Shown here: positions 8,372-61,100 of the stretch, one piece after another | Position numbering within the stretch: the stretch's first letter is position 1 | Layout: every line of letters starts with the position of its first letter | Assembly (NCBI GenBank): GCA_018813285.1 | Contig: JAHJBY010000033.1 | Span: forward strand, 69,157-133,156 | Reading direction: 5' to 3' | Source: Candidatus Omnitrophota bacterium | Lineage (GTDB): Bacteria; Omnitrophota; Gorgyraeia; Tantalellales; Tantalellaceae | DNA length: 64,000 bases | Program-made: the position numbers and the translations under genes | Notes under the pieces: model-generated | Told to the model about the DNA's origin: nothing | The model's input: only the letters and a program-made list of their open reading frames with translations | Database searches by the model: none

Positions 8372-9723
8372 TTCAGGATATCCTCCATTCTCATCTTTCG
8401 TGAACCCTTAAGCAATATCATGTCTTCCGGACGCGCGATCTCCCGAATGATGCGAGCGGCCTCTTCGTGATCCTTGGCGCGAAAAACATTTTCAGCATCC
8501 ATTCCCGCAAGAACCGCTTCCCGCGCTGTTATCGACGCGGCATCGCCGAGTGTTATTAAAAAATCAAAATTCCCGGCCGCGACGCGCGCCCCAAGGTTCC
8601 GATGCGATTCTTCGGAACGACTGCCAAGTTCCAGCATATCTCCGGCGATCACCCATTTTCTCCCCGCGAGATCCATGCCCGCTAATGTTTTCAGGGCGCA
8701 TTCAAACGAAGCCGGATTGGCGTTATACGCGTCATTTAAAAAAACCATCCCTCCTGCTGAAACCCTTTTCATCCTCATCGCGGGAAGCGCTGTTTCAAAA
8801 AGTCCGGCGCGTATCGCGCTGTATTCAACCCCCATGAACGCGGCAACAGCCGAGGCGGCCGCGGCATTATAAACATTGTGTTCCCCATCAAACGGTATTC
8901 GCAAAAGTTCGCCGTTTAACCGGAAATCATATCCAATTTCTTTTTTTTGTATGTCCTGAATATGAAACTCACAACCCGGCGTTTTTCCAAAGAACATGAT
9001 CTCCCTGCCGCAGGCGCGCAAGGAACGCAAAGAATCATCGTCGCCGGAAAGAAAAGCCGCGCCGCCTTCCGGGAGACACTCAAGAACGCCAGCCTTCTCC
9101 CTGAAAACACCATCGGTGTCCCCGAAAAACTCCAGGTGACCGGGGCCTATGTTCGTGATAACCGCGTGACCCGGCCGTACAAGCCTCGCAAGAGAGACGA
9201 TCTCACCGGGATGATTTGTCCCCAATTCAAACACCGCCGCCTCATGTGTCCTGTCAAGCCCGAACAGCGTAAGGCTTACGCCGACCATGTTGTTGTACGA
9301 AGAAGGGCTTTTAAGTGTATGATATTTCTCTGAAAGCAAACGCTGCAATATGTCTTTAACGGTCGTTTTTCCATTAGTTCCTGTCACCGCGATAATTGGA
9401 ATATCTACTTTGCTCCGAATATGGCCGGCAATAGATCCCATCGCGCCGACTGAACTAACAACGCGAATAAAGTGGCTCTTCCCCGATCCATCGATCACAT
9501 CGCGCGGGCGTTCAGATATCACTCCGGCCGCGCCTCTGGCGACGGCTTCAGCGATATGATCGTGCCCGTCGGCGTTCTTTCCCGGAATGGCAATAAAAAA
9601 CTCTCCGGGTTTTATGGTCCGGGAATCAATGGAAAATCCCCGGACTGCCGCACCCGCGGCGCTCGAATAACTCAACTCTCCGTCCGATACGTCAGCGATA
9701 TCTTTTACACCGATCTCTATCAT
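8344..9723 (-). CDS. murF: UDP-MurNAc-tripeptide--D-alanyl-D-alanine ligase
   Basis: 459 aa Mur ligase (VTGTNGKTT). Position between murE and mraY. Confidence 0.85.
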   Translation of the reverse strand: MIEIGVKDIADVSDGELSYSSAAGAAVRGFSIDSRTIKPGEFFIAIPGKNADGHDHIAEAVARGAAGVISERPRDVIDGSGKSHFIRVVSSVGAMGSIAGHIRSKVDIPIIAVTGTNGKTTVKDILQRLLSEKYHTLKSPSSYNNMVGVSLTLFGLDRTHEAAVFELGTNHPGEIVSLARLVRPGHAVITNIGPGHLEFFGDTDGVFREKAGVLECLPEGGAAFLSGDDDSLRSLRACGREIMFFGKTPGCEFHIQDIQKKEIGYDFRLNGELLRIPFDGEHNVYNAAAASAVAAFMGVEYSAIRAGLFETALPAMRMKRVSAGGMVFLNDAYNANPASFECALKTLAGMDLAGRKWVIAGDMLELGSRSEESHRNLGARVAAGNFDFLITLGDAASITAREAVLAGMDAENVFRAKDHEEAARIIREIARPEDMILLKGSRKMRMEDILKCFTTSCFR

Positions 9724-14381: not shown

Positions 14382-14855
14382 TTACTCAAGATCCATTAAA
14401 TTTTCCGCTATCTCCTCGTATTTTTCTCTGGACGCGCCGTAGAACTTCTCCCACTTGCCGATATCCCATATTTCAATACGGTCAGCTACACCCAGTATTT
14501 TTATGTCACGTGTAAGATCCGCGTATTCCTTAAGATAATCCGGGATGAGGATCCTCCACTGTCTGTCGGGCTCTACTTCTTGAGCGCCGCCAAAAAATTG
14601 ACGCGTAAATTTTCTTACTTCACTCTTCGTGAACGGCATCGCTTTGAACTTCTGTTCCTGGATCTTCCATTGACTTTCCGGGAACATGAAAAGACATTTA
14701 TCCAAACCTCGTGTGACATACAGCTTCTCTATGCCCTTTTCCCGCAGGGTTTCGCGGAATTTTGAGGGTATGATAACTCGATTCTTCCTATCTATCGTAT
14801 GTGAGTATTCGCCGTAAAACACTCCACTTTCCTCCATTTTAAACCACTTTAGCAA
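14382..14855 (-). CDS. mraZ: Transcriptional regulator MraZ
   Basis: 157 aa; tandem MraZ/SpoVT-AbrB-like halves (GEYSHTIDRKNRVIIPSKFRE ... RILIPDYLKEYA). True start may be a few codons in (MEESGVFYGEY). Confidence 0.85.
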   Translation of the reverse strand: MLKWFKMEESGVFYGEYSHTIDRKNRVIIPSKFRETLREKGIEKLYVTRGLDKCLFMFPESQWKIQEQKFKAMPFTKSEVRKFTRQFFGGAQEVEPDRQWRILIPDYLKEYADLTRDIKILGVADRIEIWDIGKWEKFYGASREKYEEIAENLMDLE

Positions 14856-14904
14856 AGTATACCCGCTAAATACCGCTTTGTCAATGATTATGCTGGATCA
14901 GGAC

Positions 14905-15050
14905 TCCCGCAAAAAGAGGCAAGAGGCGAGAAGTGATGAGTGGATGTGTACCGCAAGACGCGAAACGACGTCTCGTCCCGCGTTACGCGTTGACTTTCGC
15001 CCTTTGTTTGTGAATGGTGAATCGTGTGGGTGGTGGATGGTGAACGCAAT
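14905..15050. repeat. Mosaic intergenic repeat element, locus A, upstream of mraZ
   Basis: Contains GAGGCAAGAGGCGAGAAG, GCAAGACGCGAAACG and a run of GTG heptads (GTGAATGGTGAATCGTGTGGGTGGTGGATGGTGAA, 15010-15044). The first two motifs recur, reverse-complemented, at 32910-32953. Confidence 0.6.
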
Positions 15051-15071
15051 AAGCGGAACGCCCAACGCGGA

Positions 15072-23168: not shown

Positions 23169-23256
23169 GGGGCGAAAGATTTTTCGCCCACGAATTCACA
23201 AAGGGCGAAAGATTTTTCGCCCACGAATTCACAAAGGGCGAAAGATTTTTCGCCCC
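23169..23256. terminator. Triple tandem hairpin array (33-bp period) downstream of pgpA
   Basis: Three copies of GGGCGAAAGATTTTTCGCCC (8-bp stem GGGCGAAA/TTTCGCCC) separated by the identical ACGAATTCACAAA spacer. On the minus strand the array is followed by CCTACCGCTTTTTT. Confidence 0.6.
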
Positions 23257-23711: not shown

Positions 23712-24294
23712 TTCCACCGTTATGGATATATTTTTTATTCCCCACAATATATGAAACCCCGCTCCCGATAGTAAGCACAACTGTTATAAGCATAAGAACG
23801 AATATCACCTGTCTGTACCAGTATTCAAATGCGGGGTTCCAGAAACCGAATACTTCAACTCCGGCCTCTTTGAAAACTATAAATATCAGGATAACCAGTA
23901 TGGAAAACATCTGTGAAACGGTTTTATGCTTACCTCCCATCCCGGCAGGAAGCACCTCGTTATTCTTGAGCGCGAGTATCCTTAAGCTCGTCACAAGCAG
24001 CTCCCGCATTATGATGATCACAAGTATCCACGCCGGAATGAGTTTCATTTCCACAAAGGCGAGAAAAGCGGCCAGCGTAAGGACCTTATCGGCCACCGGA
24101 TCCATTACCTTACCAAAATCAGACTTCAGGTCGTATTTCTTGGCAATAAAACCATCTAGATAATCGCTCAAAGCGGCTATCATGAATATCACAAAGGCGA
24201 ATATCTTACAAATGATCCCCCCGGAAAAAAGAAGGATCATAAAAATAAACGTAAGGGCTATTCTTGCGACCGTTATTTTATTCGGTAGATTCAT
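23689..24294 (-). CDS. pgsA: CDP-diacylglycerol--glycerol-3-phosphate 3-phosphatidyltransferase
   Basis: 201 aa; CDP-alcohol phosphatidyltransferase motif DYLDGFIAKK ... DPVADK. Confidence 0.85.
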   Translation of the reverse strand: MNLPNKITVARIALTFIFMILLFSGGIICKIFAFVIFMIAALSDYLDGFIAKKYDLKSDFGKVMDPVADKVLTLAAFLAFVEMKLIPAWILVIIIMRELLVTSLRILALKNNEVLPAGMGGKHKTVSQMFSILVILIFIVFKEAGVEVFGFWNPAFEYWYRQVIFVLMLITVVLTIGSGVSYIVGNKKYIHNGGNGSKDIS

Positions 24295-25763
24295 CTTGCC
24301 GCGACCCCGATAAGATCATATTCCATGGCACCGGTGATCTCTACATTGACGAAATCACCTACACATATGTCCTGCCCCTCCACGTATACATCGCCGTCGA
24401 CTTCCGGGGCATCCATATAGCTCCGGCCAATGAATCCTTTCAACTCCCCGGGCTGAAGCCCAGGGGTTCCAGATAGGGATTCATACTGAGGCGGCTCACA
24501 TGTATCCCCGCCGTAAACGGCGGGGTTTAGCGCCGCTGAATGTATAACCCGGCCTGTCTCATCGGATACCTCTTCGTCTATCAGCACCCTTAATGTCTTC
24601 CCAAGATATTTAAGGTTATTTTCGCGGGATATATTCTGCTGCAAACGCATTATCGCATCAAACCTTTCCCTCTTCACTTTTTCCGGGACCTGTTCCGGAA
24701 AACCGGCAGCCGGGGTGCCTTCCTCGGGTGAGTAAATAAACGCCCCGAGCCGCTCAAACCGTGTCTCTTTAAGAAAATCCAGAAGTTCCGCGAACTGGCT
24801 GCGGGTCTCCCCCGGAAAACCAACGATAACCGATGTCCTCAGCACCACATCTTCCATTCGAGCGCGCAAACGATCTATGAGATCTTTAATTTCTTCGCCG
24901 GTAATACGTCGGTTCATCTTCCGCAATATTTCATTGTTTATGTGCTGGATCGGCAGATCAATATATTTGCAAATGTTTTCCTCATCGGCAATAACGGATA
25001 TAAGTTCCCGACTAAAATGCGCGGGATGAGTATACAGTAGTCGTATCCATCCGTCTGACATTACAGGACATAACTTTTTCAAAAGCGCGGGTAGCTGTCC
25101 GGATCCCGTTTTCTCGCTGCCAAAAGCGGTTATATCCTGAGCTACAAGTATAAGCTCTTTCACTTTATTATGTTCGGATCTTATTTTTTTTGCTTCCGCA
25201 ATAACAGAATCCATAGTACGGCTACGCAACGGCCCTCTGAGATCGGGGATAACGCAATAACTGCATCGGTTCGAACAGCCTTCTTGTATCTTCAAATACG
25301 CGTAATGTTCGGGGGTCAAAAAACCCCTGGTATTAGAGTTGTCGTATAGAAAGCACGGGACACTCGACACTTCTGTCACTTTCACGCCGGAAGCGATCGC
25401 ATCCAGAAAAACGGGTATGCGCATATAATCGGATGTTCCGAACACACCATCTATCTCTTTTATCTCATCCATTAATTCCGAAGGATATCGCTGGGAAAGG
25501 CATCCGGTGACTACGATCTTTTCGGGTTTTCCGGCCTTTTTGAGTTCAGCGAGCCTCAATATCATATCAATGGATTCTTGCTTCGCGTCCTGAATAAATC
25601 CGCAGGTATTCACGATAGCGAGATCCGCATCCAGGGGTTCGTCGACAATAGTTAAACCTTTTTCTTTGAGAAACCCCTGTAGGACTTCGCTGTCAACAAG
25701 ATTACGTGAACAACCGAGGCTCAAAATGTATACTCTTTTTATAGACAAACGGCCGGCCGTCAC
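24291..25763 (-). CDS. rimO: Ribosomal protein S12 methylthiotransferase (radical-SAM MTTase)
   Basis: 490 aa. N-terminal MTTase domain (SLGCSRNLVDSE), radical-SAM CSNRCSYC, C-terminal TRAM domain. Confidence 0.8.
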   Translation of the reverse strand: MTAGRLSIKRVYILSLGCSRNLVDSEVLQGFLKEKGLTIVDEPLDADLAIVNTCGFIQDAKQESIDMILRLAELKKAGKPEKIVVTGCLSQRYPSELMDEIKEIDGVFGTSDYMRIPVFLDAIASGVKVTEVSSVPCFLYDNSNTRGFLTPEHYAYLKIQEGCSNRCSYCVIPDLRGPLRSRTMDSVIAEAKKIRSEHNKVKELILVAQDITAFGSEKTGSGQLPALLKKLCPVMSDGWIRLLYTHPAHFSRELISVIADEENICKYIDLPIQHINNEILRKMNRRITGEEIKDLIDRLRARMEDVVLRTSVIVGFPGETRSQFAELLDFLKETRFERLGAFIYSPEEGTPAAGFPEQVPEKVKRERFDAIMRLQQNISRENNLKYLGKTLRVLIDEEVSDETGRVIHSAALNPAVYGGDTCEPPQYESLSGTPGLQPGELKGFIGRSYMDAPEVDGDVYVEGQDICVGDFVNVEITGAMEYDLIGVAAR

Positions 25764-32703: not shown

Positions 32704-32814
32704 TCTTTTTTACCTCCTCGATACGCGCGTTCATCATATTTCCTAGACGACAGTCTGAAACAACGCCATATACTACCACATAGAGCGGTATTTGTAAAGA
32801 GCGGTCAGTTGTCA

Positions 32815-32962
32815 GCTTTTAGTTTCTGGTTTCTGGTTTTTGGTTTCTGCTTTTCAGGGCATCTACTAACCTCTAAAAACTATTTTGCCCCTTGACCCTT
32901 GTCGTTTTGCGTTTCGCGTCTTGCGTTCCGCCTCTCGCCTCGTGCCTCTCGCCTATTCACGA
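32815..32962. repeat. Mosaic intergenic repeat element, locus B (between ribF and rpsO)
   Basis: Tandem GGTTTCT/GAAACCA-type repeats 32821-32850. TTGCCCCTTGACCCT 32885-32899. CGTTTCGCGTCTTGC 32910-32924 (reverse complement of GCAAGACGCGAAACG in locus A). CCTCTCGCCTCGTGCCTCTCGCC and ATTCAC end. Confidence 0.6.
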
Positions 32963-34613: not shown

Positions 34614-34616
34614 TTG

Positions 34617-34843
34617 CCGCCTCTTGCGGTTTGCGACGCGCGATTCACCATTCACGACATCCCTTATCCGCTTTAAAGTGTCAGAGTGTCAGAGTGTCAG
34701 AGTATCAGAATATAGCAACATTCGAATATAAGCCTTATTCTTTTCTTTACACTTTGATACCAGCGAACGAAGTGAGCGATGACACTTTGACACCCTGACA
34801 CTCTTGCCCCTTGACCCTACGATTCACTTGTTCACTATTCACG
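34617..34843. repeat. Mosaic intergenic repeat element, locus C (between nrnA and truB), with internal long inverted repeats
   Basis: GATTCACCATTCAC 34642-34655. Tandem GTGTCAGA x4 at 34678-34710 with a partial inverted partner TGACACTTTGACACCCTGACACTC at 34780-34803. TTGCCCCTTGACCCT 34804-34818. GATTCACTTGTTCACTATTCACG 34821-34843 (reverse complement of GTGAATAGTGAACAAGTGAATC). Confidence 0.6.
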
Positions 34844-36200: not shown

Positions 36201-36216
36201 TGTAGCTCCTTTCTAC

Positions 36217-36234
36217 CGTATTGCGTATTGAGTA
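36217..36234 (-). promoter_or_regulatory. 5'-leader motif (CAATAC triplet) immediately upstream of rbfA RBS
   Basis: Minus strand reads ATACTCAATACGCAATAC followed by GGTAGAAAGGAGCT and the ATG. Near-identical copy upstream of ribBA at 46149-46168. Confidence 0.4.
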
Positions 36235-36250
36235 TCGCGTACCCGTTTGT

Positions 36251-40685: not shown

Positions 40686-40723
40686 GATTTCCTCTTCTCA
40701 TTATTCTTACTTCTTTTTACCAA

Positions 40724-40915
40724 TTACCAATTTATCGATAAAAACCTCCGAGTAGAGACTATTTTGGTGGCCGTGGCAATAGCAGGCTCCTTCGCAATTC
40801 CTTGTCCAATTTTTATAAGGATATTATCAGAAACGTCTGCAAAGCGAGCAATTTTCTCCTGCGACAGCCCTTTTTTCATTCTTAGTTTTCCTACATTTTC
40901 CGCAAGCATAATCAA
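40724..40915 (-). CDS. Small XRE-family HTH protein
   Basis: 63 aa; KKGLSQEKIARFADVSDNILIKIGQG fits HTH_3. Confidence 0.5.
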   Translation of the reverse strand: MIMLAENVGKLRMKKGLSQEKIARFADVSDNILIKIGQGIAKEPAIATATKIVSTRRFLSINW

Positions 40916-41061: not shown

Positions 41062-41183
41062 GACAACAAAATCCCACAAACGCGGGTATATTATCATGTT
41101 AATAAACATTTTGCAACACATCATTAGTGAAAGGGTTAACACAAAGAAAGCCGTCAGCCATAAGCTATCAGCTTTCAGCTAAA

Positions 41184-41434
41184 GGCGAGAGGCTATAGAA
41201 AAGATAATCCATGGTGAACAAGTGAATGGTGAAAGTGAAGTGAAAACGGAGAACTCATTACAGGAATTTAGCTTTTTATTTGGTCTTGAGCGCGAAATAC
41301 CACACTCACGAGTGTTCGCGCTCTCCGACAGCCAAAAGCTGGAGGAGGGGCAAGTTTCGTGAGGTGCGAAAGGTCGAATAAAAAGCGTTAAGAATTCCTG
41401 TAGAGGCCGATTTTTTACTTCACTTTCATCATCC
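41184..41434. repeat. Mosaic intergenic repeat element, locus D (between ribE and tRNA-Pro), bounded by 12-bp inverted repeats
   Basis: GGCGAGAGGC 41184-41193. Five tandem GTGAA units (GTGAACAAGTGAATGGTGAAAGTGAAGTGAAAAC, 41214-41247). Internal hairpin GAGCGCGAA...TTCGCGCTC 41288-41323. GGAGGAGGGGCAAG 41341-41354. Inverted arms TGAAAGTGAAGT (41230-41241) and ACTTCACTTTCA (41417-41428). Confidence 0.55.
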
Positions 41435-41468
41435 CGCGTTAAAACATAGGCAAAAGGTGAGGACCGAA

Positions 41469-46123: not shown

Positions 46124-46148
46124 ATTTACCTTCAGCTCTCAGCTTTTT

Positions 46149-46168
46149 AGTATTGAGTATTGCGTATT
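46149..46168 (-). promoter_or_regulatory. 5'-leader motif (CAATAC triplet) immediately upstream of ribBA RBS
   Basis: Minus strand reads ATACGCAATACTCAATAC followed by TAAAAAGCTGAGAGCTGAAGG and the ATG. Paralogous to 36217-36234. Confidence 0.4.
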
Positions 46169-46222
46169 CAAAGTTGCAAGAGCACACGGCACATGTGCGC
46201 CCTGCCGGGCGCGCAATAAAAA

Positions 46223-46245
46223 AGCCCTGAAAAAACTTCAGGGCT
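46223..46245 (-). terminator. Intrinsic terminator hairpin (riboswitch attenuator) between FMN aptamer and ribBA
   Basis: AGCCCTGAA/TTCAGGGCT 9-bp stem with 5-nt loop, followed on the minus strand by TTTTTTATT. Confidence 0.65.
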
Positions 46246-46274
46246 TTATATCACGCATATTTACTTCTTACGTG

Positions 46275-46420
46275 TACTTCTCCCATCCCGGCTGTCTTCG
46301 CGTTTTCACGCGACGGTCGGCACCCGATTCTCACAGGTTCAGACCCTCACGGATCTCGCGGGCTAATCTCCCTTGGGAGCATCACCGCCGGCTAAGGAAT
46401 TGCGCCTTACCCTGAAGTCT
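46275..46420 (-). ncRNA. FMN riboswitch (RFN element) aptamer
   Basis: Minus strand contains CAGGGUAAGG...AUUCC, AGCCGGCGGU, AGCCCGCGAG, GCCGAC and 3' GGGAUGGGAGAAG. These match the conserved RFN blocks in order, directly upstream of ribBA. Confidence 0.78.
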
Positions 46421-46472
46421 TAACCATGCCAACACATACGCGTTGTAAGTCAAGTGTTAAATACATTTAACC

Positions 46473-46516: not shown

Positions 46517-48175
<1,659 letters not shown>

Positions 48176-52177: not shown

Positions 52178-55100
52178 TTACAACGCCACAGCGGTCTTTG
52201 TGATGGCATCGATCTCCTGCCGGATCTCTTCGCCTATGTTCAGCCTGGTGATCTTAATCAACAGGTGAAGAATATCTTTTAGCCCTTTTTCTAATCGCTT
52301 TAAGGTTTCTTCCGCGCATTCTACGGCCATTATCCGGGGCGCGTCCTTCTCATCCAGTGTCCTCTTAAGAAGGCTCACCACTGCCACTTCCGGCAATATC
52401 CGATTTATCCTCTTTCCTGCGGCGTCATCCGTTAATACATTCTTTCCCAAAAGCACAAAACCGGGAACATTCTCTTTCCCTTCCGCGCGCATATAGTTGA
52501 TCAAATTTTCTGTTAAGGCCCCGGATTCGACCGCTGCCATTGAAACGTCTGCAGGCCGTATATTCACTCCCTTGACTTCCAGGCTTTTCAATACCTCTTT
52601 AACCGTATTGGATATATTTTCCTTCTTCCGGTTTGGATCAAGCACAACAGGTATGACATTCTTTAAACTTATGATTTCTTCCGGGATCGGAACATCACGC
52701 GTTGTGGCGACACATATATAAAAACGCTTATCCGCAAATGCCTTTATCGCGGGAATCATTTCGCCTATGTCAACACCCGGAAATCTTGTATCAATGACAA
52801 TCGCCTTCGGAACCTCAGGGATCAGCTCCATCAAACTCTTCTCCATACCCTTGATCTTTTCATCCTCATGCTTTGCCGCCATATTTTTGAAATCCAGAAG
52901 ATCGCCAAACGGCATTTTCGGGTTGTCATTAAGATATTTCACAAATCCGGAATGATAGCCGAGAAATCTGTCCCTGAGATCCGCCTTTTCTTCATCAGAA
53001 AGGCTGTCATCACGATCTGCGGTAACCGCTTCGCCAGCTGATTTGCAATACTCGTCGGCCCATTTTTCGTTATCACCCGGGACTATGGAAGGAAATCGAA
53101 ATTCTTCCCCGGCCAATGCCCTGGGATAATAATCCCGCATGATAGAACCCAACACATCATGATGAGCCTCATCCGGCAATACATCCTGCAATACATTAAG
53201 TATATTTCCCATGTCATCAAGAGTCTTGCCTTCCAGGGCCATCATCGCGCCTTCATCCAGGCCGCCGGCATACGGATGAATAAGGTATGGGAACATATTC
53301 GCAAGAGCCTGGATCTCCGCGATCCTTACCGCTTCCTTTATCGCGTCTTCCATATCCGTTTCTTCTCTCATTTCAATGAGCACATGCGGCTTTAAGCCAG
53401 CTTCCGTCGCGATCTTTTCGAAAGCTTCTTTATTTTTTACCGCGATAAATTCTATATTCGCGTAATTTTTTATGATCGGATATTTTTTCTCCATAGCGCC
53501 TTCATCCGCGCCCACGATCCCGATAACGGCTACAGGCGTGATTACCGGCGGCATCTTTTTCGTCGTCGGCGGCAAGGATGCCGGTCCTGACCTTATCGTA
53601 GCGTAAGGAACGGCTTTTCTCCCGACTACCGTATTTGTAATAAAAGCGGTTAGATTTACCACTGAATGAAGCGCAACAGCAACAGTTAACAACTGCCACA
53701 CACCGGTCTCAATCACGAAAGGCATAAATATATTTAATCCGGTAACAAGGAGCGCTGTTTTCCACCCGTGTTTATGCAACAGCACGAAAAATATCCCGGA
53801 TAATATCTGAAGAGACGCTAAAATAAGCACAGATGTCTGAACCGAAGGGCTCACCCCCATAAGCCCTGTGATAACAGGCGTAAGACACTGCGTTAAAAGA
53901 AGAGGAACGCCGAAGTATACCATCCTCTCTCGGAAAGGCGCCAGCAGCAAATGCTCCATACCGAATTTAGTCTGATTCCATAAAATGGAATCATCTTTCC
54001 CTATCCCAAGTTTGTTACGGGCACTATTTACGACAGACGAATAAGGTGCCTCTTTATGCATGGCATAAAACACCTGAAACGCGCCCGCCCTGTCACCTTT
54101 ACCCAAATAAGCATGGACCAACAATCTCCGCGCTTTTAGTCTGAACTCGCCTTTTAAAGACTTATCAAAAAATGGTATAGCGCCATCAAAATCCCTCGCG
54201 GCGAGATTCATTAAAGCCAGGCAAAAATATAAATTAGTTTTTAATTCTTCTTCCGCAAACTCGATTTCTCCCAGGTTATTTACCGCATTTTGAATCGAAT
54301 CAAATAACAACACTTTTTCTCTGATTGTTTTTATCTCTGGAAGGAATGTTCCTTTACCAGTAATAGCCCGGATAAGAGTTTCCGAAAACCTGGCATTAAG
54401 ATGACCAAGGAGAGTGCTTATAAACAGTTTGTCTTTTTCCCCTTGCCTCGAAAGCATCGCCGATAACACGGCGTGATACGCGCCGTCATTCAGAAAGAAT
54501 AAGTTAATAAGCTCCTTTGCCAATGTCTCGTTAAACGTTTTTTCGGAAATCGCTTTAATCCCATCAATTAAGACCTTATCGTTTATAAGCCGCTTTCTTA
54601 AGTTTTTCCTCTTTCTCTCTCTCAACCCGTCGTCAAACAATACGGATTTCCCGATCTCCTTAATGCAAATTTCAAACACGCTGTCCGCACTCTTACTGTA
54701 GGGAATCGTTTTTAGCAGATAAACCGACAGATTAAATACCTTATCGTTTTCATTCCGCACCTTCCAGAAAGTGAACATCTTCTCCAGCAACGCCGGCAAT
54801 TCTTCCAGGACAGTTTCGAACTCATCGCTCTTAAGACCCCCTATAACCGCAGCAACATCATCGTATGCTTTCGCTTTGCCAGAATCCGCATCTTTCTGTA
54901 ACTTTTCAACACGCCGCTGTTTCCTCTCCCGCGTTTCCTGTGACACTTTCCTGCCCGATTCTATCCGGTACACTTCTTCATGGCATGATATAATATCTCC
55001 GTATATCTGTATCTTTTCCCGCGCGTTTTTCCCTTTCGCGGATAATGTCAAAATATGCCCTTTCAATAAATCGTCCATCCGGGCTTTGTCGCCTCCTTTA

Positions 55101-58100
55101 AATACAAGCTCCTTTGACAAATCCTTCAATCTTTCACTTCCGGGAGCTATCTCTTGCGCCTTCCTTAGCAAAATCTCAGCCCTCACAAGCTCGCCATTCT
55201 GCAGCGCCCTCGCAGCCATCCCGAGAATAAGATTTACCGTCGGTTTTTTATCAGCATCCTCGAGCCCGGAAGGTTCAAGTTTCTGTTTTTCGGCAACCGC
55301 AACGTTTTTCTTCAGGCTTAACTTCCTCCTTTCAAGAAGACCCCGGACCTGTTCGAGCCTTTTTTTTCTTTCGGCTTCTTCTTTTTGATCTTCGCTCACT
55401 TTTTGAACGGCTTCTTCACGATCCTTTTTCATATAAGGTTTTTCAAGAATTTCTTTCTCTCTCGAACCTAACAAATCCTCCAGGCCGTCTTCCCGTGACC
55501 GTATCCAGGAAATGATCTCTCTTCTGCGCCTTTTTTCTATACTCGCATCCTTTCCTTCCTTTTCCAACTGCCGCAATTCGGTTTCCAGTCTCGCTCTCTC
55601 ACCCTTGAGTAGTGTTATCCCTTTACTTATTTCTTTTTCTTCTTTTTCGAACCGCGCCAAATCCTGCCTAGCTTTCGCTGATCCTGCTATTGTCCGGTTT
55701 ACATTCTTTCTAATTTTGTTAATCTTATCGACCCTTTCCTTCACTTCTCCCCTTGTCTCACCGGCCAGGTCATCTTCCGCGTCCAATTCTTTCAATACGC
55801 GACTTGCTTCTTCGAATTTGCCCTCATCAAAATATGCCTCGGCCAGGTTTAACCTGTTTTCCGGCGTGGAACTGAGTTCTGCCGCCTTCTTTAAATCTTC
55901 TATCCTATCCCCTGCCTTTTTCTGTCCCTTTGCCCGATCAACAAAAATATCTGCCATCTGTTGTCCCGCTGTCTTCCGTGCAAAATCGGCATCCAACGCT
56001 ACCGCTTCTTCATGCCGCTCGATCGCTTCAGCTGCCGCTTCTTCATTCCGTTCGACCGCTTCGGCTTCCGCTTCCCTGCCTTCTTCCAGCGCCAGGTCCC
56101 TGAGACCGACTTTCGCAAGAACGCAGCGTTTATCCATCCATAACGCCCGATAGAAGCTTTCTTCTGCTTTCCGAAAATCCCTAACTTCTCCCTTAAGATA
56201 CGTCAGTCCTTTAAGCACGGTAAGCCGCGCCAGTAACGGCCTGTTGTTTCTTTGTTTTCTGCTGGATAAATCAGAATACGCCCCCTGCAACACGTCGATA
56301 CATATACCTATTGCAAAACTGTCCGTGCGAAACGTGTCGGGAAAAAACTCATACATCTTTTCAAGATAATCAACTCCTTTTTCCACAAAAGCCGCATCCC
56401 TGTCCACCCCGGCAGAATACGCTCCCATATGTTCTATCACACTCTTATACATGCCGCGAAGTTCATCGATAAAGCCGCTGTCCTCTTTCAACTTCTCATC
56501 TAACTGCCTCGCTTTTTCCATGTTATCTATTGCTAAATCAAAAAGTTTTTGAGATTCCGTCATGTTTTTCGCCGAAACTTCGAATTCCGCCAGCCCCCGT
56601 CCGGACAGCGCCATAAACCTGTAAAGCTCGGCTTTTTCATAACCGGACTTTTCGGCTTTCAGGAAAAGTGAATAGGCCTTACTGAAATCATTCCTTTCAT
56701 ACGCTTCGATACCTGACCTAAACAAACTTTCCGCTTTAACTTCTTCCCCTGCTTTCGCGGCACGCCAGAAGCGAAAGCGAGCCCGCATCCTCCTCCCCCG
56801 GAACCTGTGTATATAACCCCGGATCATATACGCGTACTGACGGCACGCTTTAATATTTTCGAGTTTCTTAATGGCAAGTGTCAGGGCTCCAAGATCAACA
56901 CTCGTCGGCACTATTCCGCGGACAAGCATGGTTTCTCTTATTTGCCCCATTAAAAGCCGAAGAAGCTCCGTTTTATCTTCCACCGAGAGAAGTTTAGGCT
57001 CAAGGACCTCGATAATAAGTTTTCCGTTATTAAGACCAAACCGTTCATTCAATAAAACAATGCTCACTTTTTTTGCTCTATGAGGAGCACTGAACATCAC
57101 CTTCTTGAAACCATCATCCGAGATAAAATACTGCACCCTGGATGGAATACTCTTCCCCAGCCCTCCAAGTTCTTCTATCCGACTGGTCCAAGAGACGAAA
57201 AGTTCAATAATCTGGTCGTCATGCCTCGAGTCATACCTGAGCCTTATCGCTTCTTTAAGGTTTTCCGCGACAGTTTCCTCGACGTCCCGCGTTTCGTCCG
57301 AAGCAAGCCCCAGTTTAGCCTTCAGTAAATAAAACAACATCCATTCGTCAATGTTTTCAACATCTCCCGCTCTAAACTCATTCAGAAGCTCTTCTGACTC
57401 TTTGATCCTTGTCCTGGCAATTTTTGAGACATCCGCCTCTTGCAGCAACAGTTCGGCAAGTATCAATTTGGAGCTGTTCAAATATTCTCCCAGCTCTGTC
57501 TTTTTGACGCTTATAACCCACCTTAAGAGCGAAATCGCGCCCGCCCTTTTTTCGCCGTCCAGCCCCCGTTCCCTGAGGATATAGACAAGTTGTTCATACG
57601 AAATATCCTTCATGGAATCAAATGTTCCCGTGATATCAGTATTAAGCGGGCCGACTTCCTTTTCGAGCTTACCTATGCGCCCCCTAACCGCCGCCGTCAT
57701 ACCGGCTCTTTTCGGAATTTTCTCGAATTTTTTAATATATTCCTCTAACGCTTCCTTCTTCTGTCCGAGTTTCCATGTTTCCCGGGCTTTTTCGGCCATG
57801 ACAGAAATATTTCTCTCTCTGACTGCCTTCTTTATCTTTTCCTTTCTTGTCACGACATATTTTTCGATTTCCGCGTCTTTCTTTCTTTGCAATTCATTCA
57901 GTTTTACACGATGTTCCTGAGCTTTCGCGTTATTCTTAACCGCGGTGTCATCGCTCTTTTCGTACAACCCGATCAATTTCTCATGAGCGTCTGCGGCGTC
58001 CTCATCATTAAGACCTTCCCCAACAGCCTTTTCCAGATCATCCGCTGCCGGCCGTGTTCTGCCGTCGGCCAGATGCAAAAGCCCCCGTTTAAAATGTGCC

Positions 58101-61100
58101 CTGCCGTTTGACTGATTCAAAGATAAAGCTTTTTCATAATCTATCAATTTTTGTGCACGCGTCATGGGCGCGACTTCCGCGTATAAAAGATATGCGTTTG
58201 ACAATTCCCCAGTAACATCCGGGGCGTTTTCTCTGCCGCTTAACTTTTTCATAATAGATTTCGCTTTCCCGAACACCCTTTCTTTATATTTATCATCGGG
58301 TATGGCCTTCCCCTGTTCTATCAGCGCCTGTGCCAGCTTAAACCGGGCGGCATATCTCTTGCCGGCGCTGATATACCGCAAAGGAGCCTGCCACCACCCA
58401 TGCAGGGCTACGATCCTGCTGTGCGCCTTACCGGTAATCCTATCAAAATGTGATTTGAGTTCTTTTTTCCTGGTTTCATCCTCAATATTCTCGATATGTT
58501 CTTTAGCCGAAGAAACTTCATGGAGGACCTCCCGCAAGCGTTGTATTTTCGAGGCGGGTCTACGCAATACATCCCTCCATTTCCATTCCATTCTTTTTTC
58601 TATGCGCGCCTTCAGCGCTTCCACAAGTTTTGTTTTTATCTCGTCCAATTTATCTTTTGTTTCGTTTTTCTCTTTCTCATCAGTTATCTCATCGGGTTTG
58701 ATATTTTCTATCGCCTGCCGCGCGTACGTAATGACCTTCTCCTGTTCTTTCACTTTCCACGCGAATTCAATAACTTTCTCATAAAGCCCTGCATCTTTTC
58801 CATCCGCCTCGATCGCCTTGTCGTAATACTCAAACGTTTTCTTTCTATCATCGATAGGCCTGAAAATGAGATATTTACAGACTAAATACGCAACAATGAG
58901 TGTCCCGAGAGTTCCGATAACATAGGGCATTATTCCGTGCAGATGTGTACCGGCGGTTTCAAGCATGCCCATAAACTGCAGCACACCGACTCTGCGGCAA
59001 TACGACAACAACAGTAGCAAAGATAACAAAATAATGACTCCTCCAGCGCAAAGAACGACACTTTTCACGTCGCTATACGTCCTGTATCTGTTCATATAGC
59101 CTTCGGCGATCCCTGCATATGTCTCTTTTGAAACGTCTTTCAGCTTCTCGCATTTTCTGAAATCTGAAAATGCTTTTCCCTTCCAGTTCTTGTCACGATT
59201 TATCTCCGCCCTCAGAAGCCGCGCCTTAAGTTCCGCGTCGTTCAACCCGCCGGGCAACCTCTTCTTCATCCTGAACGAAAGAAACTTCCTTAACCTGGAA
59301 AAATCCTTCCATCTCAAGACCTCATTCAACTCTTCCAATGCCTCGTCCGTTCTGCCCACCAAAAGCTTAAGTGCTTCCGCTTTCAGCACCATCGCCTCCG
59401 CCGCGTAAGAAAGCACTCTTTTCGCCGATTCGACTGCTTTAAGACCCTCATCAGCGTATTCACTCGTAGCATCCGTATTCCCTTCCTTCGATTCCTCTTC
59501 GCTTTTTCCATTATACGCGGCCGCGAGAGCGATATAAGCTTTATGCAGTTCCAACGGATTATAAAGTATCCTCTCGAGTTTTATTGTAAGTTTGTGTGCT
59601 TCAAAATTGTATTTATCCTTTTCCACGGCTTTTTTCGCTTCAGCGAGCGCTTCCTCAAAATGGTTGAGGCTAAAATGCGCCCGGGCAAGCTTGTAATGCG
59701 CCTCGCTGTTTTCCGGGTCAAGTTTCACGGCCTCTTCGTACATAGCAATGGCGGAAAGGAGATTACGCGCGCGTTTTATCATTCCTTCTTCACCAAACTT
59801 TTCATATAAACCTTCTTCGTCCACTCCCGCAAACACATCCGCCTCATTGATCAACTGCTTGAAATCGCTTTTTGACAGCTCATAAGACGCTAATTCGTCT
59901 TCGGCGCTCTTTCTTTCCGTTTCAGGAATGATTTGAGTTTGTCTCGCGAGAAAACACTTTTTCTCTTCACCCGTCATATCATGCCAGGACTTCTGTTTCT
60001 TATCCGCATGACACGTCTTTATGTCCGTGTAAAGCACTTCAAGATCACTGATAAGTTTCTCGACATAAAGCGCTTTAAGATCATCGGCAAGTTTTTCAAC
60101 CACGTTCATCTTGCCTTTGCCTTTAGCGATAACATCTAAAATGGCGTCTTCAAGCCCCGGTTCTTCTGCCAAACGCGTAAGTTTAAACACGTCTTTTATC
60201 ACTTCCCGCAGAAATTCGTCAAACTCCGGTAATATCTCTCGACTTGACAGGTTTGACTTTTCGTACGCGAGGTCGATAAAACCTTCAAGTGCCGTAACGC
60301 GCGCCAGGCGGCTGATCTTACCGTTCATAAAAACAGCAAGCAGCAATCTCGCGAGTTTGCCGGTCTTGTCGTCTTTTTTAAGTTTTTCTGTTACATATTC
60401 CAGGAGTTCAAGCACCGGAAAATCCACTCCTTCGATCAATACTTTGTCCTTCTGTGCGCTCGCAAACGCCTCCGCCATCGCGTCAATCCCAACAACCTTT
60501 TTTGCCAGCCGTAGCCGCAGGTCCCGAAATCTTTCCTCAAGCATCCTTCGTTTCTTCCTGTCCGTTTCCGTATGTTTGATCCTTTCGAGTCTTTTGTCTA
60601 TTTCCCCTGTCAGCTCCACAAGCTTCTCTTTATAGCCATAAATATAATCCAACAACTTGTCGGCGACTTCCTCGGCGACCTTCTTCCCGTCGTCAGAATC
60701 GTCCGCCAATTCAACGGCATCAAGATAAGCGTTGCGCGCCCGTTGCAAAGCATCATCCCCCTTAGCATCATTTTCACCCTTTTCGGCTTTTCTTTTCTTT
60801 TCCTTCTCCTGCGCCTCGGCAAACTCTTTACTTGATTTTTCGACTTTTTTCTTCAATGTTTCTTTCTCTTCTTCCAATTTATCGAGTTTTTCTTTTATTT
60901 TTTGAACCCGTGCCTCTTTTTCTTTTATCGCTCCATCATTGCCTTCTTTTTGCTTACGAACTCCGAATATTTCCCCCTTAATTCTGCTTTGTTCTTCTAA
61001 TTGCAAAGCAAGTATCGCCTCATCAAGCTTCCCCCGAAGCTGATCGATTTCTTTGTCTAAAACGTCCCGTTCGCGTTTTAATCCATCCATTTCTCTTTGC

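Follow-up and report, generated by a model that had tools for sequence, protein, structure and literature searches.

Heptanucleotide repeat arrays in the intergenic spacers of an Omnitrophota genome and their possible relation to PF05635 cassettes

We analysed a 64,000-nt stretch of a Candidatus Omnitrophota genome (assembly GCA_018813285.1, contig JAHJBY010000033.1, positions 69,157 to 133,156; hereafter the window), about 3.2 kb (5%) of which is intergenic and 60.8 kb (95%) coding, and in which short sequence words recur in the spacers of unrelated genes. The best explanation of these words as a whole, to which we assign a probability of roughly 0.55, is that they belong to a lineage-wide vocabulary of tandem arrays, at least part of which are the terminal arrays of intervening sequence (IVS)-type cassettes built around a gene of the PF05635 family. 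We are highly confident that the loci are simple-sequence arrays of heptads (octads at one locus) that resemble the short tandemly repeated repetitive (STRR) sequences of cyanobacteria. We lean somewhat against the stronger claim that all of the arrays derive from PF05635 cassettes. The four loci from which the analysis started are spacers separating housekeeping genes; their neighbours are protein and tRNA genes, and they do not lie inside 23S rRNA:

Locus A, 14856-15071, between a FadL-like gene and mraZ, with which the dcw cluster begins.
Locus B, 32704-32956, between ribF and rpsO.
Locus C, 34614-34834, between a DHH/nrnA-like gene and truB.
Locus D, 41063-41468, between ribE and tRNA-Pro.

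The recurrence of intergenic words, first pointed out in a sequence-only reading of the window, is real and, as that reading held, not random; it is far above what dinucleotide-shuffled controls produce: 19 12-mers are common to different intergenic regions, as against 0.61 +/- 1.0 in the shuffles, and four 15-mers, as against 0. The longest words common to loci are CGCAAGACGCGAAACG, GTGAATGGTGAATCG, TTGCCCCTTGACCCT and ATTCACTTGTTCAC, and words of 15-16 nt are two adjacent units of one unit family. Tandem Repeats Finder (TRF) places every period-7 array of the window in a spacer (15010, 32822, 32903, 32929, 36217, 40717, 41154 and 46149). At a lower threshold it reports 10 period-7 arrays in the intergenic 3.2 kb and 4 in the 60.8 kb of coding sequence, and shuffled spacers are expected to hold 0.32 +/- 0.57 (maximum 3 across 200 shuffles) where 10 are observed. 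Over the 113.8 kb sampled from the window species in all, of which about 50 kb lies outside the window, 20 arrays stand outside long open reading frames (ORFs) and 5 inside. Loci A, B and D match at lag 7 in a fraction of 0.46-0.62 of their bases, and so do the spacers 36210-36245 and 46128-46172; at other lags the fraction in the three loci is about 0.25, and the period of locus C is 8 nt (lag-8 match 0.48). The unit vocabulary comprises GTGAATN, GGCGAGA/GGCAAGA, CGCAAGA/CGCGAAA, GGTCAAG/GGGCAAG, CAGAAAC, GCTGAxA, CAATACG and AGTGTCAG. The proposal that the four loci are mosaic copies of one element did not hold: there is no common consensus, a self-BLAST of the window finds the loci without alignable similarity and with only words of up to 16 nt in common, and the supposed modules are runs of two or three units from longer degenerate arrays. 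Three more loci of the same kind lie beyond the original four (36217-36241, 40717-40732 and 46133-46170).

The connection to PF05635 comes from locus C, which is made up as follows:

34641-34655, minus strand: GTGAATG GTGAATC G, 28 nt upstream of the truB start.
34677-34709, plus strand: left arm, an octad array of AGTGTCAG, 4.1 copies by TRF.
34710-34779, plus strand: putative ORF-less cassette interior of about 70 nt, including the 3'-end motif CAGCGAACGAAGTGAGCGA at 34762-34780.
34780-34818, plus strand: right arm, inverted octads TGACACTT TGACACCC TGACACTC, then TTGCCCC TTGACCC, which is the first module of the sequence-only reading.
34819-34842, minus strand: GTGAA-type units GTGAATA GTGAACA AGTGAATCG, overlapping the nrnA stop codon; the 14-mer ATTCACTTGTTCAC in this run is also found at 41214.

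The inverted repeats of locus C have arms of 23-31 nt that are 74-91% complementary, and the inverted octad arrays form a long hairpin of -49 to -52 kcal/mol (z = -6.2 and -6.4). A full-length cassette with matching ends is present on L169 (L numbers denote the sequence stretches compared), one of five Joint Genome Institute (JGI) metagenome contigs from one sample (L166-L170, 41 kb in total) that were retrieved by a search for a dispersed element of about 110 nt. These contigs belong to the window species, because L184, which comes from GCA_018822625.1, an assembly that also contains the rpsO locus of the window, is 100% identical to L169 over 888 nt. On L169, (AAAGTGTC)x3 is followed by a 121-aa ORF and then by TTTGACAC TAGCGAACAAAGTGAGCGA TGATACTC TGATACTT; this right end also includes GCGAACAAAGTGAGCGA between TTTGACAC and TGATACTC. 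The ORF is a clear member of PF05635 (23S rRNA-intervening sequence protein, a four-helix bundle; E = 7e-36). Locus C and L169 have the left octads in common, and both carry the right-end motif GCGAAC(G/A)AAGTGAGCGATGA; the variant at locus C, CGAACGAAGTGAGTGATGA, also stands at the right end of the PF05635 cassette of L174. A second ORF-less copy of locus C, 88% identical over 99 nt, occupies a non-orthologous site between leuD and leuB (L170, 537-635). These shared ends make it quite probable that locus C, which has no ORF, derives from a PF05635 cassette present elsewhere in the genome. The right-hand array continues into TTGCCCC TTGCCTC TAGCCTC in L170 and into CTGCCCTTTGACCCTTTGACAC in L173, so the TTGCCCCTTGACCCT module and the GAGGC-type units belong to the terminal arrays of the PF05635 cassette. 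Homology of the ends to a full-length cassette is established for locus C only, not for A, B or D.

The vocabulary extends well beyond the window. Unrelated spacers on L166-L170 carry (AGTGTCAG/AGTGTCAA)x5, GCGGAACGCAAGACGCG then GGGTCAAGGGG, TTTTAGTATTGAGTATTGC, GTGAACAAGTGAATCGT beside CAATACG units, AGAGGCT AGAGGCA AGGGGCAAGAG, and AGAGGCA/GGGGCAAG units, and there are thus further copies elsewhere in the genome, contrary to one of the outcomes that would have counted against the sequence-only reading; the window proteins have no match on these contigs except an inserted repeat element of about 40 aa. In a neighbouring 8.6 kb of the window genome (L139) there are a 9-mer array, the dispersed element of about 110 nt and a pair of inverted heptads, TGCAAAA/CAATTTG, but none of the specific modules that the sequence-only reading described. 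The DNA of the window itself is also found in the metagenome-assembled genomes GCA_018823645.1 and GCA_018822625.1, in a 166-kb ENA contig and in several Logan assemblies (99.8-99.99% identity).

Arrays likewise accompany PF05635 genes in other bacteria. Flanking arrays of 7-8 nt occur at 11 of the 12 PF05635 genes examined (Omnitrophota, Geobacterales, Cyanobacteria and Gemmatimonadota), and under a uniform TRF rule 10 of the 12 have arrays at both ends, as against a baseline of 7.6% of ORFs in loci chosen for their heptads. Octad arrays and their inverse surround each of the PF05635 genes of L171, L173 and L174 (58-68% identical); in Oryzomonas japonica a PF05635 gene stands between (GTGAATG)n and (ATTCAC)n, and another between (AGGTTAA)n and its inverse (L091, L121). 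A tblastn search of the ORF against 72,556 plasmids gave 25 records, 23 of them cyanobacterial. Of six matches examined, five (Nostoc edaphicum, N. punctiforme, Trichormus variabilis, Pseudanabaena galeata and Gemmatirosa; L186-L190) show heptad or octad arrays directly next to the gene at either end, and in four of these five the arrays are inverted. The N. edaphicum gene, for example, is flanked by a GGGGAGT/GGGAGTA array and its inverse. The published Coxiella IVS fits the same pattern: along with an S23p ORF it has a terminal stem of 28 bp and the heptamer GACAGAT in two or three copies, a number that varies between strains, and RNase III cuts it at the first repeat (PMC4990558). Our literature search found no paper linking the PF05635 family with heptamer repeats in general.

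Several further observations concern the surroundings of these genes. The plasmid matches fall almost all in cyanobacterial genera known for STRR repeats, and the plasmid genes (Nostoc, Trichormus, Pseudanabaena, Calothrix and Gemmatirosa; L185-L190) are wedged in operon spacers, such as that between cas6 and cas4 or, on the opposite strand, that between the genes for the two ribonucleotide reductase subunits. Two genes upstream of the L174 cassette lies a Y1_Tnp (IS200/RAYT-type) transposase gene (872-1906), an arrangement seen in 10 metagenome samples; it could be a coincidence or a clue to how the cassette moves.

One of the window units, GTGAATN, is found across phyla, and the others are lineage-specific. 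A scan for GTGAATGGTGAATCGYG in one genome per species (GTDB) gave at least 120 stretches (L015-L134), and the matches listed come from Chitinophagaceae, Acidobacteriota, Gemmatimonadota, Burkholderiales, Verrucomicrobiota, Nitrospirota, Omnitrophota and others, cultured strains included; nearly all are embedded in longer arrays. Among these matches, pairs of GTGAATN arrays are convergent in 48 cases vs 5 divergent. At the 120 GTDB loci listed, the nearest gene lies at a median of 24-47 nt on the 5' side vs 93-130 nt on the 3' side, and in the listed matches this proximity holds whatever the direction in which the nearest gene runs. Array frequency falls sharply above four units. Two-unit runs of GGCGAGA, CGCAAGA, CAGAAAC, AGTGTCAG, CAATACG, GCTGAAA and TTGGTAA occur at or near chance in 888 kb of unrelated phyla. 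A metagenome scan for the composite GGCGAGA-N(5-25)-CGCAAGACGCGAAACG returned no matches and missed the window's own two sites as well. In viral contigs GTGAATGGTGAATCGYG gave 26 matches, mostly chance occurrences in the coding sequence of redundant phage contigs, with about five real arrays; phages as a vector of the arrays were accordingly set aside, there being no sign of this in that scan.

Loci A and B hold arrays without a hairpin partner, between the stop codon of one gene and the promoter of the next:

14913-14948, plus strand: locus A array 1, AAAGAGG CAAGAGG CGAGAAG TGATGAG TGGATGT (GAGGC-type; TRF 14914-14931), upstream of the mraZ promoter.
14952-15000, plus strand: locus A array 2, CGCAAGA CGCGAAA CGACGTC TCGTCCC GCGTTAC GCGTTGA, holding the 16-mer common to locus B.
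15010-15051, plus strand: locus A array 3, GTGAATG GTGAATC GTGTGGG TGGTGGA TGGTGAA (GTGAATN family; TRF period 7), with a 15-mer in common with 34641-34655.
14856-14884, minus strand: predicted mraZ promoter, TTGACA-17-TATACT, 11/12 consensus matches, outside the arrays and their downstream limit.
32800-32856, minus strand: locus B array 1, TGAAAAG CAGAAAC CAAAAAC CAGAAAC CAGAAAC TAAAAGC TGACAAC TGACCGC (TRF 32822-32853, period 7, 4.6 copies), ending at the rpsO -35 box.
32866-32959, minus strand: locus B array 2, about 13 degenerate heptads in one continuous run from GTGAATAG at the ribF stop.
32770-32798, minus strand: predicted rpsO promoter, TTTACA-17-TAGTAT with an upstream TG, kept in relatives in which the sequence upstream is not.

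Locus B array 2 passes through GGCGAGA, then CGCAAGA/CGCGAAA, then GGTCAAG GGGCAAA, and from 32959 to 32866 on the minus strand reads, in register, TGAATAG GCGAGAG GCACGAG GCGAGAG GCGGAAC GCAAGAC GCGAAAC GCAAAAC GACAAGG GTCAAGG GGCAAAA, with matches of 0.62 at lag 7, 0.56 at lag 14 and 0.49 at lag 21. Since the whole of 32866-32959 can be read in one register, the three modules that the sequence-only reading had told apart are consecutive parts of one array. The two halves of locus A array 2 are mutually inverted and give a small local hairpin (z only -1.7). Neither locus has terminal inverted repeats (none at B, a weak one at A), and neither has a significant fold vs shuffles (z -1.7 to +0.2; 0.16 and -0.01 for locus B array 2). 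We infer that A and B are solo or degenerate arrays.

The individual placements in the sequence-only reading mostly stand with corrections. TTGCCCCTTGACCCT is common to 32885 and 34804, on the plus strand at both. GCAAGACGCGAAACG is present at two loci as described, starting at 14953 (plus) and 32910 (minus), one base away from the 14952 first given; the longest word shared by loci A and B is the 16-mer CGCAAGACGCGAAACG (14952-14967 and 32910-32925). Units of the GGCGAGAGGC type were found at 41184 (plus), 32930 (minus) and 32944 (minus); at 14916, a third proposed site, GAGGCAAGAGGCGAGA stands instead. GTGAATGGTGAA lies at 15010 (plus), 41222 (plus) and 34644 (minus). The word placed at 32886, 34805 and 41348 exists as a string, and 32886 reads GGGGCAAA, not GGGGCAAG. 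Runs of GTGAA heptads had been claimed for all loci; at locus B there is just one such unit, GTGAATAG, which overlaps the ribF stop. The recurrence between unrelated genes in either orientation was borne out, with units seen both ways relative to transcription at different loci.

Two observations touch these spacers. On the minus strand just downstream of the predicted mraZ promoter, at 14824-14850, stand the direct repeats AAAGTGG / AAAATGG / AAAGTGG with 10 nt spacing, which we take to resemble MraZ operator repeats; they overlap the ribosome-binding site and the likely GTG start, which suggests that the real mraZ start lies near 14823, not 14855. The heptads upstream of mraZ were rejected as MraZ operators, the operator-like triple repeat being downstream of the promoter and outside the arrays. 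Separately, Logan assemblies from several runs break at 32865/32866, 32933/32934 and 34771/34772 (loci B and C), and these breaks could reflect repeats elsewhere in the genome or polymorphism in the population.

Locus D and the three additional loci are laid out as follows:

41143-41198, minus strand: locus D array 1, GCCTCTC GCCTTTA GCTGAAA GCTGATA GCTTATG GCTGACG GCTTTCT (TRF 41154-41181), upstream of the tRNA-Pro promoter.
41222-41436: locus D palindrome, imperfect, about 215 nt, between the ribE stop and the tRNA-Pro promoter.
36217-36241, minus strand: CAATACG x3.6, in the 50-nt spacer from the CCA-adding-enzyme gene to rbfA, with a 12-mer in common with 46157.
46133-46170, minus strand: CAATACT/CAATACG and GCTGAGA/GCTGAAG units in the ribBA leader, between an FMN riboswitch terminator and the start codon, with a 19-mer in common with L170 at 3873, in the window species.
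40717-40732, plus strand: TTACCAA x2.3.

Locus D is indeed bounded by inverted repeats, of 21 nt and 90% complementarity where 12 bp had been stated; these outer arms are GTGAA-type arrays (41226-41246 and 41412-41432). The palindrome folds at -83.6 kcal/mol on the minus strand (z = -6.6) and at -100.3 kcal/mol on the plus strand (z = -8.4). Intrinsic terminators were rejected as an explanation of the hairpins, which are not followed by T-tracts. As to the ribBA leader, the FMN riboswitch (46271-46423, minus strand, 70.6 bits) and a terminator-like hairpin (46222-46250) lie upstream of a 399-aa gene, presumably ribBA, and the heptad arrays of 46133-46170 are thus within a regulated leader.

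The arrays are polymorphic in copy number and rapidly replaced between relatives. Among strains of the window species, which are more than 99.9% identical, the 34677 array has one octad (8 nt) fewer in L001 and L137 than in the window. Strain L002 has one 33-nt unit fewer at 23170, and L013 and L014 differ by a 24-nt copy-number change. The 7-nt arrays showed no copy-number change among the near-identical strains compared. Against four relatives (RibF 86%, 79%, 67% and 64% identical), the alignable part of the ribF-rpsO spacer starts at the -35 box, and what lies upstream has been replaced. The closest of them, L009 (86%), has other heptad arrays in the ribF-rpsO and nrnA-truB spacers, with GTGAATG and CAATACG units, the latter being the unit of 36217-36241, reused; the relative at 67% has heptads of a different vocabulary, and two other relatives have almost none. 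In L010 (79%), locus D array 1 is partly kept; the tRNA-Pro promoter is conserved. The copies of each locus available are either identical, within the species, or, in relatives, set in a spacer that cannot be aligned. L010 also has an element of about 125 nt in two copies of opposite orientation, 91% identical (1871-1997 and 8662-8788), which occupy exactly the spacers matching window loci D and C.

Several points weigh against a derivation from PF05635 cassettes. A jackhmmer search found no PF05635 ORF in the window, so the window loci could only be ORF-less derivatives, and at loci A and B the putative link to the cassette consists of shared units, with no inverted partner. Only 2 of the 48 listed convergent GTGAATN pairs enclose a PF05635 gene; most arrays therefore exist without one, and the arrays may predate the arrival of the gene or be independent of it. 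Within the window, only about half of the GTGAA arrays have their 5' end facing the nearest gene. Locus D folds better on the plus strand, antisense to all of its neighbours, an outcome not predicted by simple processing of a sense mRNA. As for the genes elsewhere, those of L171, L173 and L174 are not phylogenetically independent of that of L169, L091 and L121 were drawn from loci selected for heptads, the arrays flanking the Pseudanabaena gene are direct, not inverted, and cyanobacterial genomes are so rich in heptamers that some of the adjacency could be chance.

The alternatives have to account for the same observations. The simplest is that the arrays are plain microsatellites, neutral filler produced by nothing more than slippage at 7 nt, and that PF05635 genes merely land or are kept in repeat-rich spacers. 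Mrazek et al. are said to have put forward in 2007 a polymerase-footprint idea, under which slippage is favoured at 7-nt units. The intergenic position of the arrays and their variable copy number agree with this account, as do the lack of structure at A and B and the scarcity of PF05635 genes near most arrays, here and in other phyla, and the slippage hypothesis is quoted in the literature (PMC4679880; PMC4692102). We nonetheless consider it unlikely, because it does not explain identical units, even 15-19-mers, at unrelated loci, the cross-phylum occurrence of GTGAATN with its excess of convergent pairs among the matches listed, the duplication of a 99-nt non-repetitive interior together with its arrays at leuD-leuB, or arrays at both ends of 10 of the 12 PF05635 genes examined when set against the heptad-selected baseline. 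A different possibility is that the arrays are iterated binding sites for an oligomeric protein, a candidate being the pentameric PF05635 protein itself, a relative of bAvd, the accessory protein of diversity-generating retroelements; PF05635 matches the bAvd-like family weakly. A limited vocabulary, the sharp drop above four units (also reported by Rehm et al., 2015; PMC4692102), the fact that arrays at A, B and D stand immediately upstream of promoters and, at the GTDB loci listed, the orientation of arrays relative to the nearest gene would suit such sites. A regulatory site should persist, however; the flanking promoters are kept in close relatives, but the units are not the same there, nor from locus to locus, and different loci have them in one or the other orientation relative to transcription. 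Judged from these sequence comparisons, the idea appears improbable.

The sequence-only reading had itself favoured a family resembling miniature transposable elements with inverted repeats (MITEs) or repetitive extragenic palindromes (REPs), or else a structured RNA. Part of this stands: there is a genome-wide intergenic family, loci C and D are palindromic and so loosely REP- or MITE-like, and locus C has a dispersed second copy. What did not stand is a single family. A classical family of MITEs, or of REPs and bacterial interspersed mosaic elements (BIMEs), moved by a transposase encoded elsewhere (for example of the Y1/RAYT type) could also draw on the element of about 125 nt that L010 carries in two spacers in opposite orientations, on the Y1_Tnp gene near the L174 cassette, and on the many PF05635 genes that sit on contigs of about 1 kb, as multi-copy elements would. 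We think it quite improbable all the same, since no consensus runs across the four loci, A and B lack terminal inverted repeats, no target-site duplication is recognisable and inspection shows no direct repeats flanking C or D, and the interiors between convergent GTGAATN arrays differ even within one genome (L051). Moreover, no short palindrome of the REP type, with its conserved head, is present, the modules being direct tandem units, and a Pfam scan of neighbouring window genes found no transposase, RAYT or Y1. A structured non-coding RNA family, a small RNA or cis-regulatory element kept for its fold, is very improbable indeed. Loci C and D do fold far better than shuffles, and the arrays at 36217 and 46133 lie in leader or intercistronic spacers that are likely transcribed, but the C and D folds are plain long palindromes that form on both strands, A and B are unfolded, and for the four loci Rfam gave no match, either in a gathering-threshold scan of the window or in scans of the loci at E <= 1. 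Orthologous spacers cannot be aligned upstream of the promoter in relatives, and a conserved structured RNA is therefore not supported.

Under the PF05635 explanation, the full form of the element would be a gene for the four-helix-bundle protein (S23p) with terminal arrays, often inverted, around it, and the arrays would grow and shrink through slipped-strand mispairing. Two inverted arrays would give the transcript a stem of at least 20-30 bp, a potential target of RNase III, for which the 28-bp Coxiella IVS stem (4 x 7 nt) may serve as a model. Cleavage would cut the operon transcript between nrnA and truB and between ribE and tRNA-Pro. By analogy with that system, RNase III processing of the stems at loci C and D is a tentative proposal, a little short of an even chance. 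Solo direct arrays would be unstructured and probably neutral remnants. A far broader version, which we regard as rather unlikely, is that bacterial heptamer and octamer arrays in general are the termini or footprints of one pan-bacterial family of selfish PF05635 IVS-type cassettes. This would cover cyanobacterial STRRs, Xanthomonas GGGAATC, the cross-phylum GTGAATN and the Omnitrophota vocabulary; inverted arrays of about 28 bp would provide a stem processed by RNase III, so that the cassette could reside in rRNA and in operon spacers without doing harm, decay would account for the ORF-less pairs and the solo arrays, and the PF05635 pentamer may recognise or propagate the arrays.

The arrays resemble several known systems. 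Cyanobacterial STRR heptanucleotides were reportedly described by Mazel et al. in 1990. Like these and other 7-nt long simple sequence repeats (SSRs), the arrays consist of head-to-tail units, with several families per genome, an intergenic bias, short arrays and variation between strains; unlike STRRs, they are in an Omnitrophota host, have other unit sequences and are very degenerate, merging in one register, with an 8-nt family beside the 7-nt ones and a link to a defined gene cassette. Heptanucleotides are the most over-represented class of long SSR in bacteria, cyanobacterial STRRs have been known since 1990, and the origin and function of bacterial heptanucleotide repeats remain open (PMC4692102; PMC4679880). 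For Xanthomonas GGGAATC and Nostoc GGGGA(C/T)T, which have been proposed to form G-quadruplexes, placement near the 5' ORF and the preference for four units have been ascribed to the quadruplex (Rehm et al., 2015; PMC4692102). GTGAATC is one base off GGGAATC, and our arrays have in common with these heptamers that they are mostly of up to four units, form inverted pairs, lie closer to the 5' ORF at the GTDB loci listed (in the window, only about half of the GTGAA arrays do) and vary widely between close relatives; GTGAATN and most window units lack G-tracts. GTGAATN cannot form quadruplexes yet follows the placement rule at the listed GTDB loci, and the G-quadruplex explanation is thus at best incomplete. 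TAACTGA direct repeats of marine Beggiatoaceae, some Cyanobacteria and Bacteroidetes (MacGregor, 2015; PMC4679880) are also intergenic heptamers, in 2-6 copies, often just upstream of start codons and, as here, patchy across phyla in a way that suggests horizontal spread; they differ in having one dominant unit per genome, mostly direct arrays and a proposed binding of a translational regulator, with no cassette reported.

The resemblance to the 23S rRNA IVS lies in the same gene family in the full cassette, in strain-variable heptamers by the ORF and in ORF-less short forms. An IVS with an S23p/PF05635 ORF is also found in Leptospira and Brucella. The terminal inverted repeats at C (23-31 nt) and D (21 nt), though not A and B, are comparable to the Coxiella stem of about 28 bp. 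The arrays here differ from the 23S IVS in lying in spacers of protein and tRNA genes, in terminal repeats that are multi-unit tandem arrays and in window copies that lack the ORF; RNase III cleavage is experimental for the Coxiella stem, and predicted from sequence here. With REP, BIME and MITE elements the arrays share an intergenic position, multiple copies, palindromes (C and D), a tendency to break short-read assemblies and a possible role as hairpins at RNA 3' ends or processing sites; their repeated parts are tandem and microsatellite-like, not a fixed sequence. A heptanucleotide SSR in the promoter/5' untranslated region of Haemophilus influenzae hmw is reported to undergo RNase III-dependent phase variation (PMC12721329). 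It is a 7-nt intergenic SSR like those here; expression depends on its repeat number, and its transcript is acted on by RNase III. The difference is that hmw is a single contingency locus of a surface adhesin in a pathogen, whereas here the arrays flank housekeeping genes genome-wide.

The window is gene-dense, nearly all of its genes lie on the minus strand, and its GC skew is strongly negative; the best matches of its proteins bear Candidatus Omnitrophota names. It also holds other repeats. A dispersed element of about 105-117 nt, the one used to retrieve L166-L170, consists of two hairpins, ATGAATCC...GGATTCAT and CCCCGCCGTAAACGGCGGGG, and has at least 8 copies in 114 kb of the window species (window 24429-24545, L139 12832-12935 and 14915-15032, and L166-L170), often followed by CCTGTCCCG 9-mer and CCCTCGGCTTCGCTC 15-mer arrays. 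The window copy lies in frame in the TRAM domain of a MiaB/RimO-like radical-SAM protein (ORF 24291-25763, minus strand), to which it adds about 34 residues missing in orthologues, an arrangement that recalls Rickettsia palindromic elements. A 33-nt tandem repeat (x2.6, 23170-23255) has a unit made of the hairpin GGGCGAAAGATTTTTCGCCC and ACGAATTCACAAA, with a related hairpin found at L167 6236 as well as in the ribF-rpsO spacer of L010. Within coding sequence, a perfect 12/24-nt repeat, GCCTGGCATACC x4 at 46526-46576, lies at the 3' end of a 547-aa ORF (46517-48160) and would encode a C-terminal short peptide repeat, and an ORF on the minus strand (52178-64000) of more than 3,940 codons, which extends past the window end, contains internal 33-nt repeats at 55998-56074. 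Giant proteins of this kind have been reported in Omnitrophota.

Searching the literature for the repeat strings, and for tandem repeats in Omnitrophota, turned up nothing relevant. What is new here is the occurrence of heptamer arrays in a candidate phylum for which we found no earlier report, together with the tie between an array family and a PF05635 cassette. The arrays break short-read assemblies, and they are usable as hypervariable strain markers. If the link to PF05635 is general, both an origin for such arrays (a cassette that ends in arrays) and a molecular role (a stem cut by RNase III) become testable; such a link would also count against G-quadruplexes, given that G-poor units obey the same rules of length and orientation. 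The arrays of PF05635 cassettes may thus help to explain the origin of bacterial heptamer repeats.

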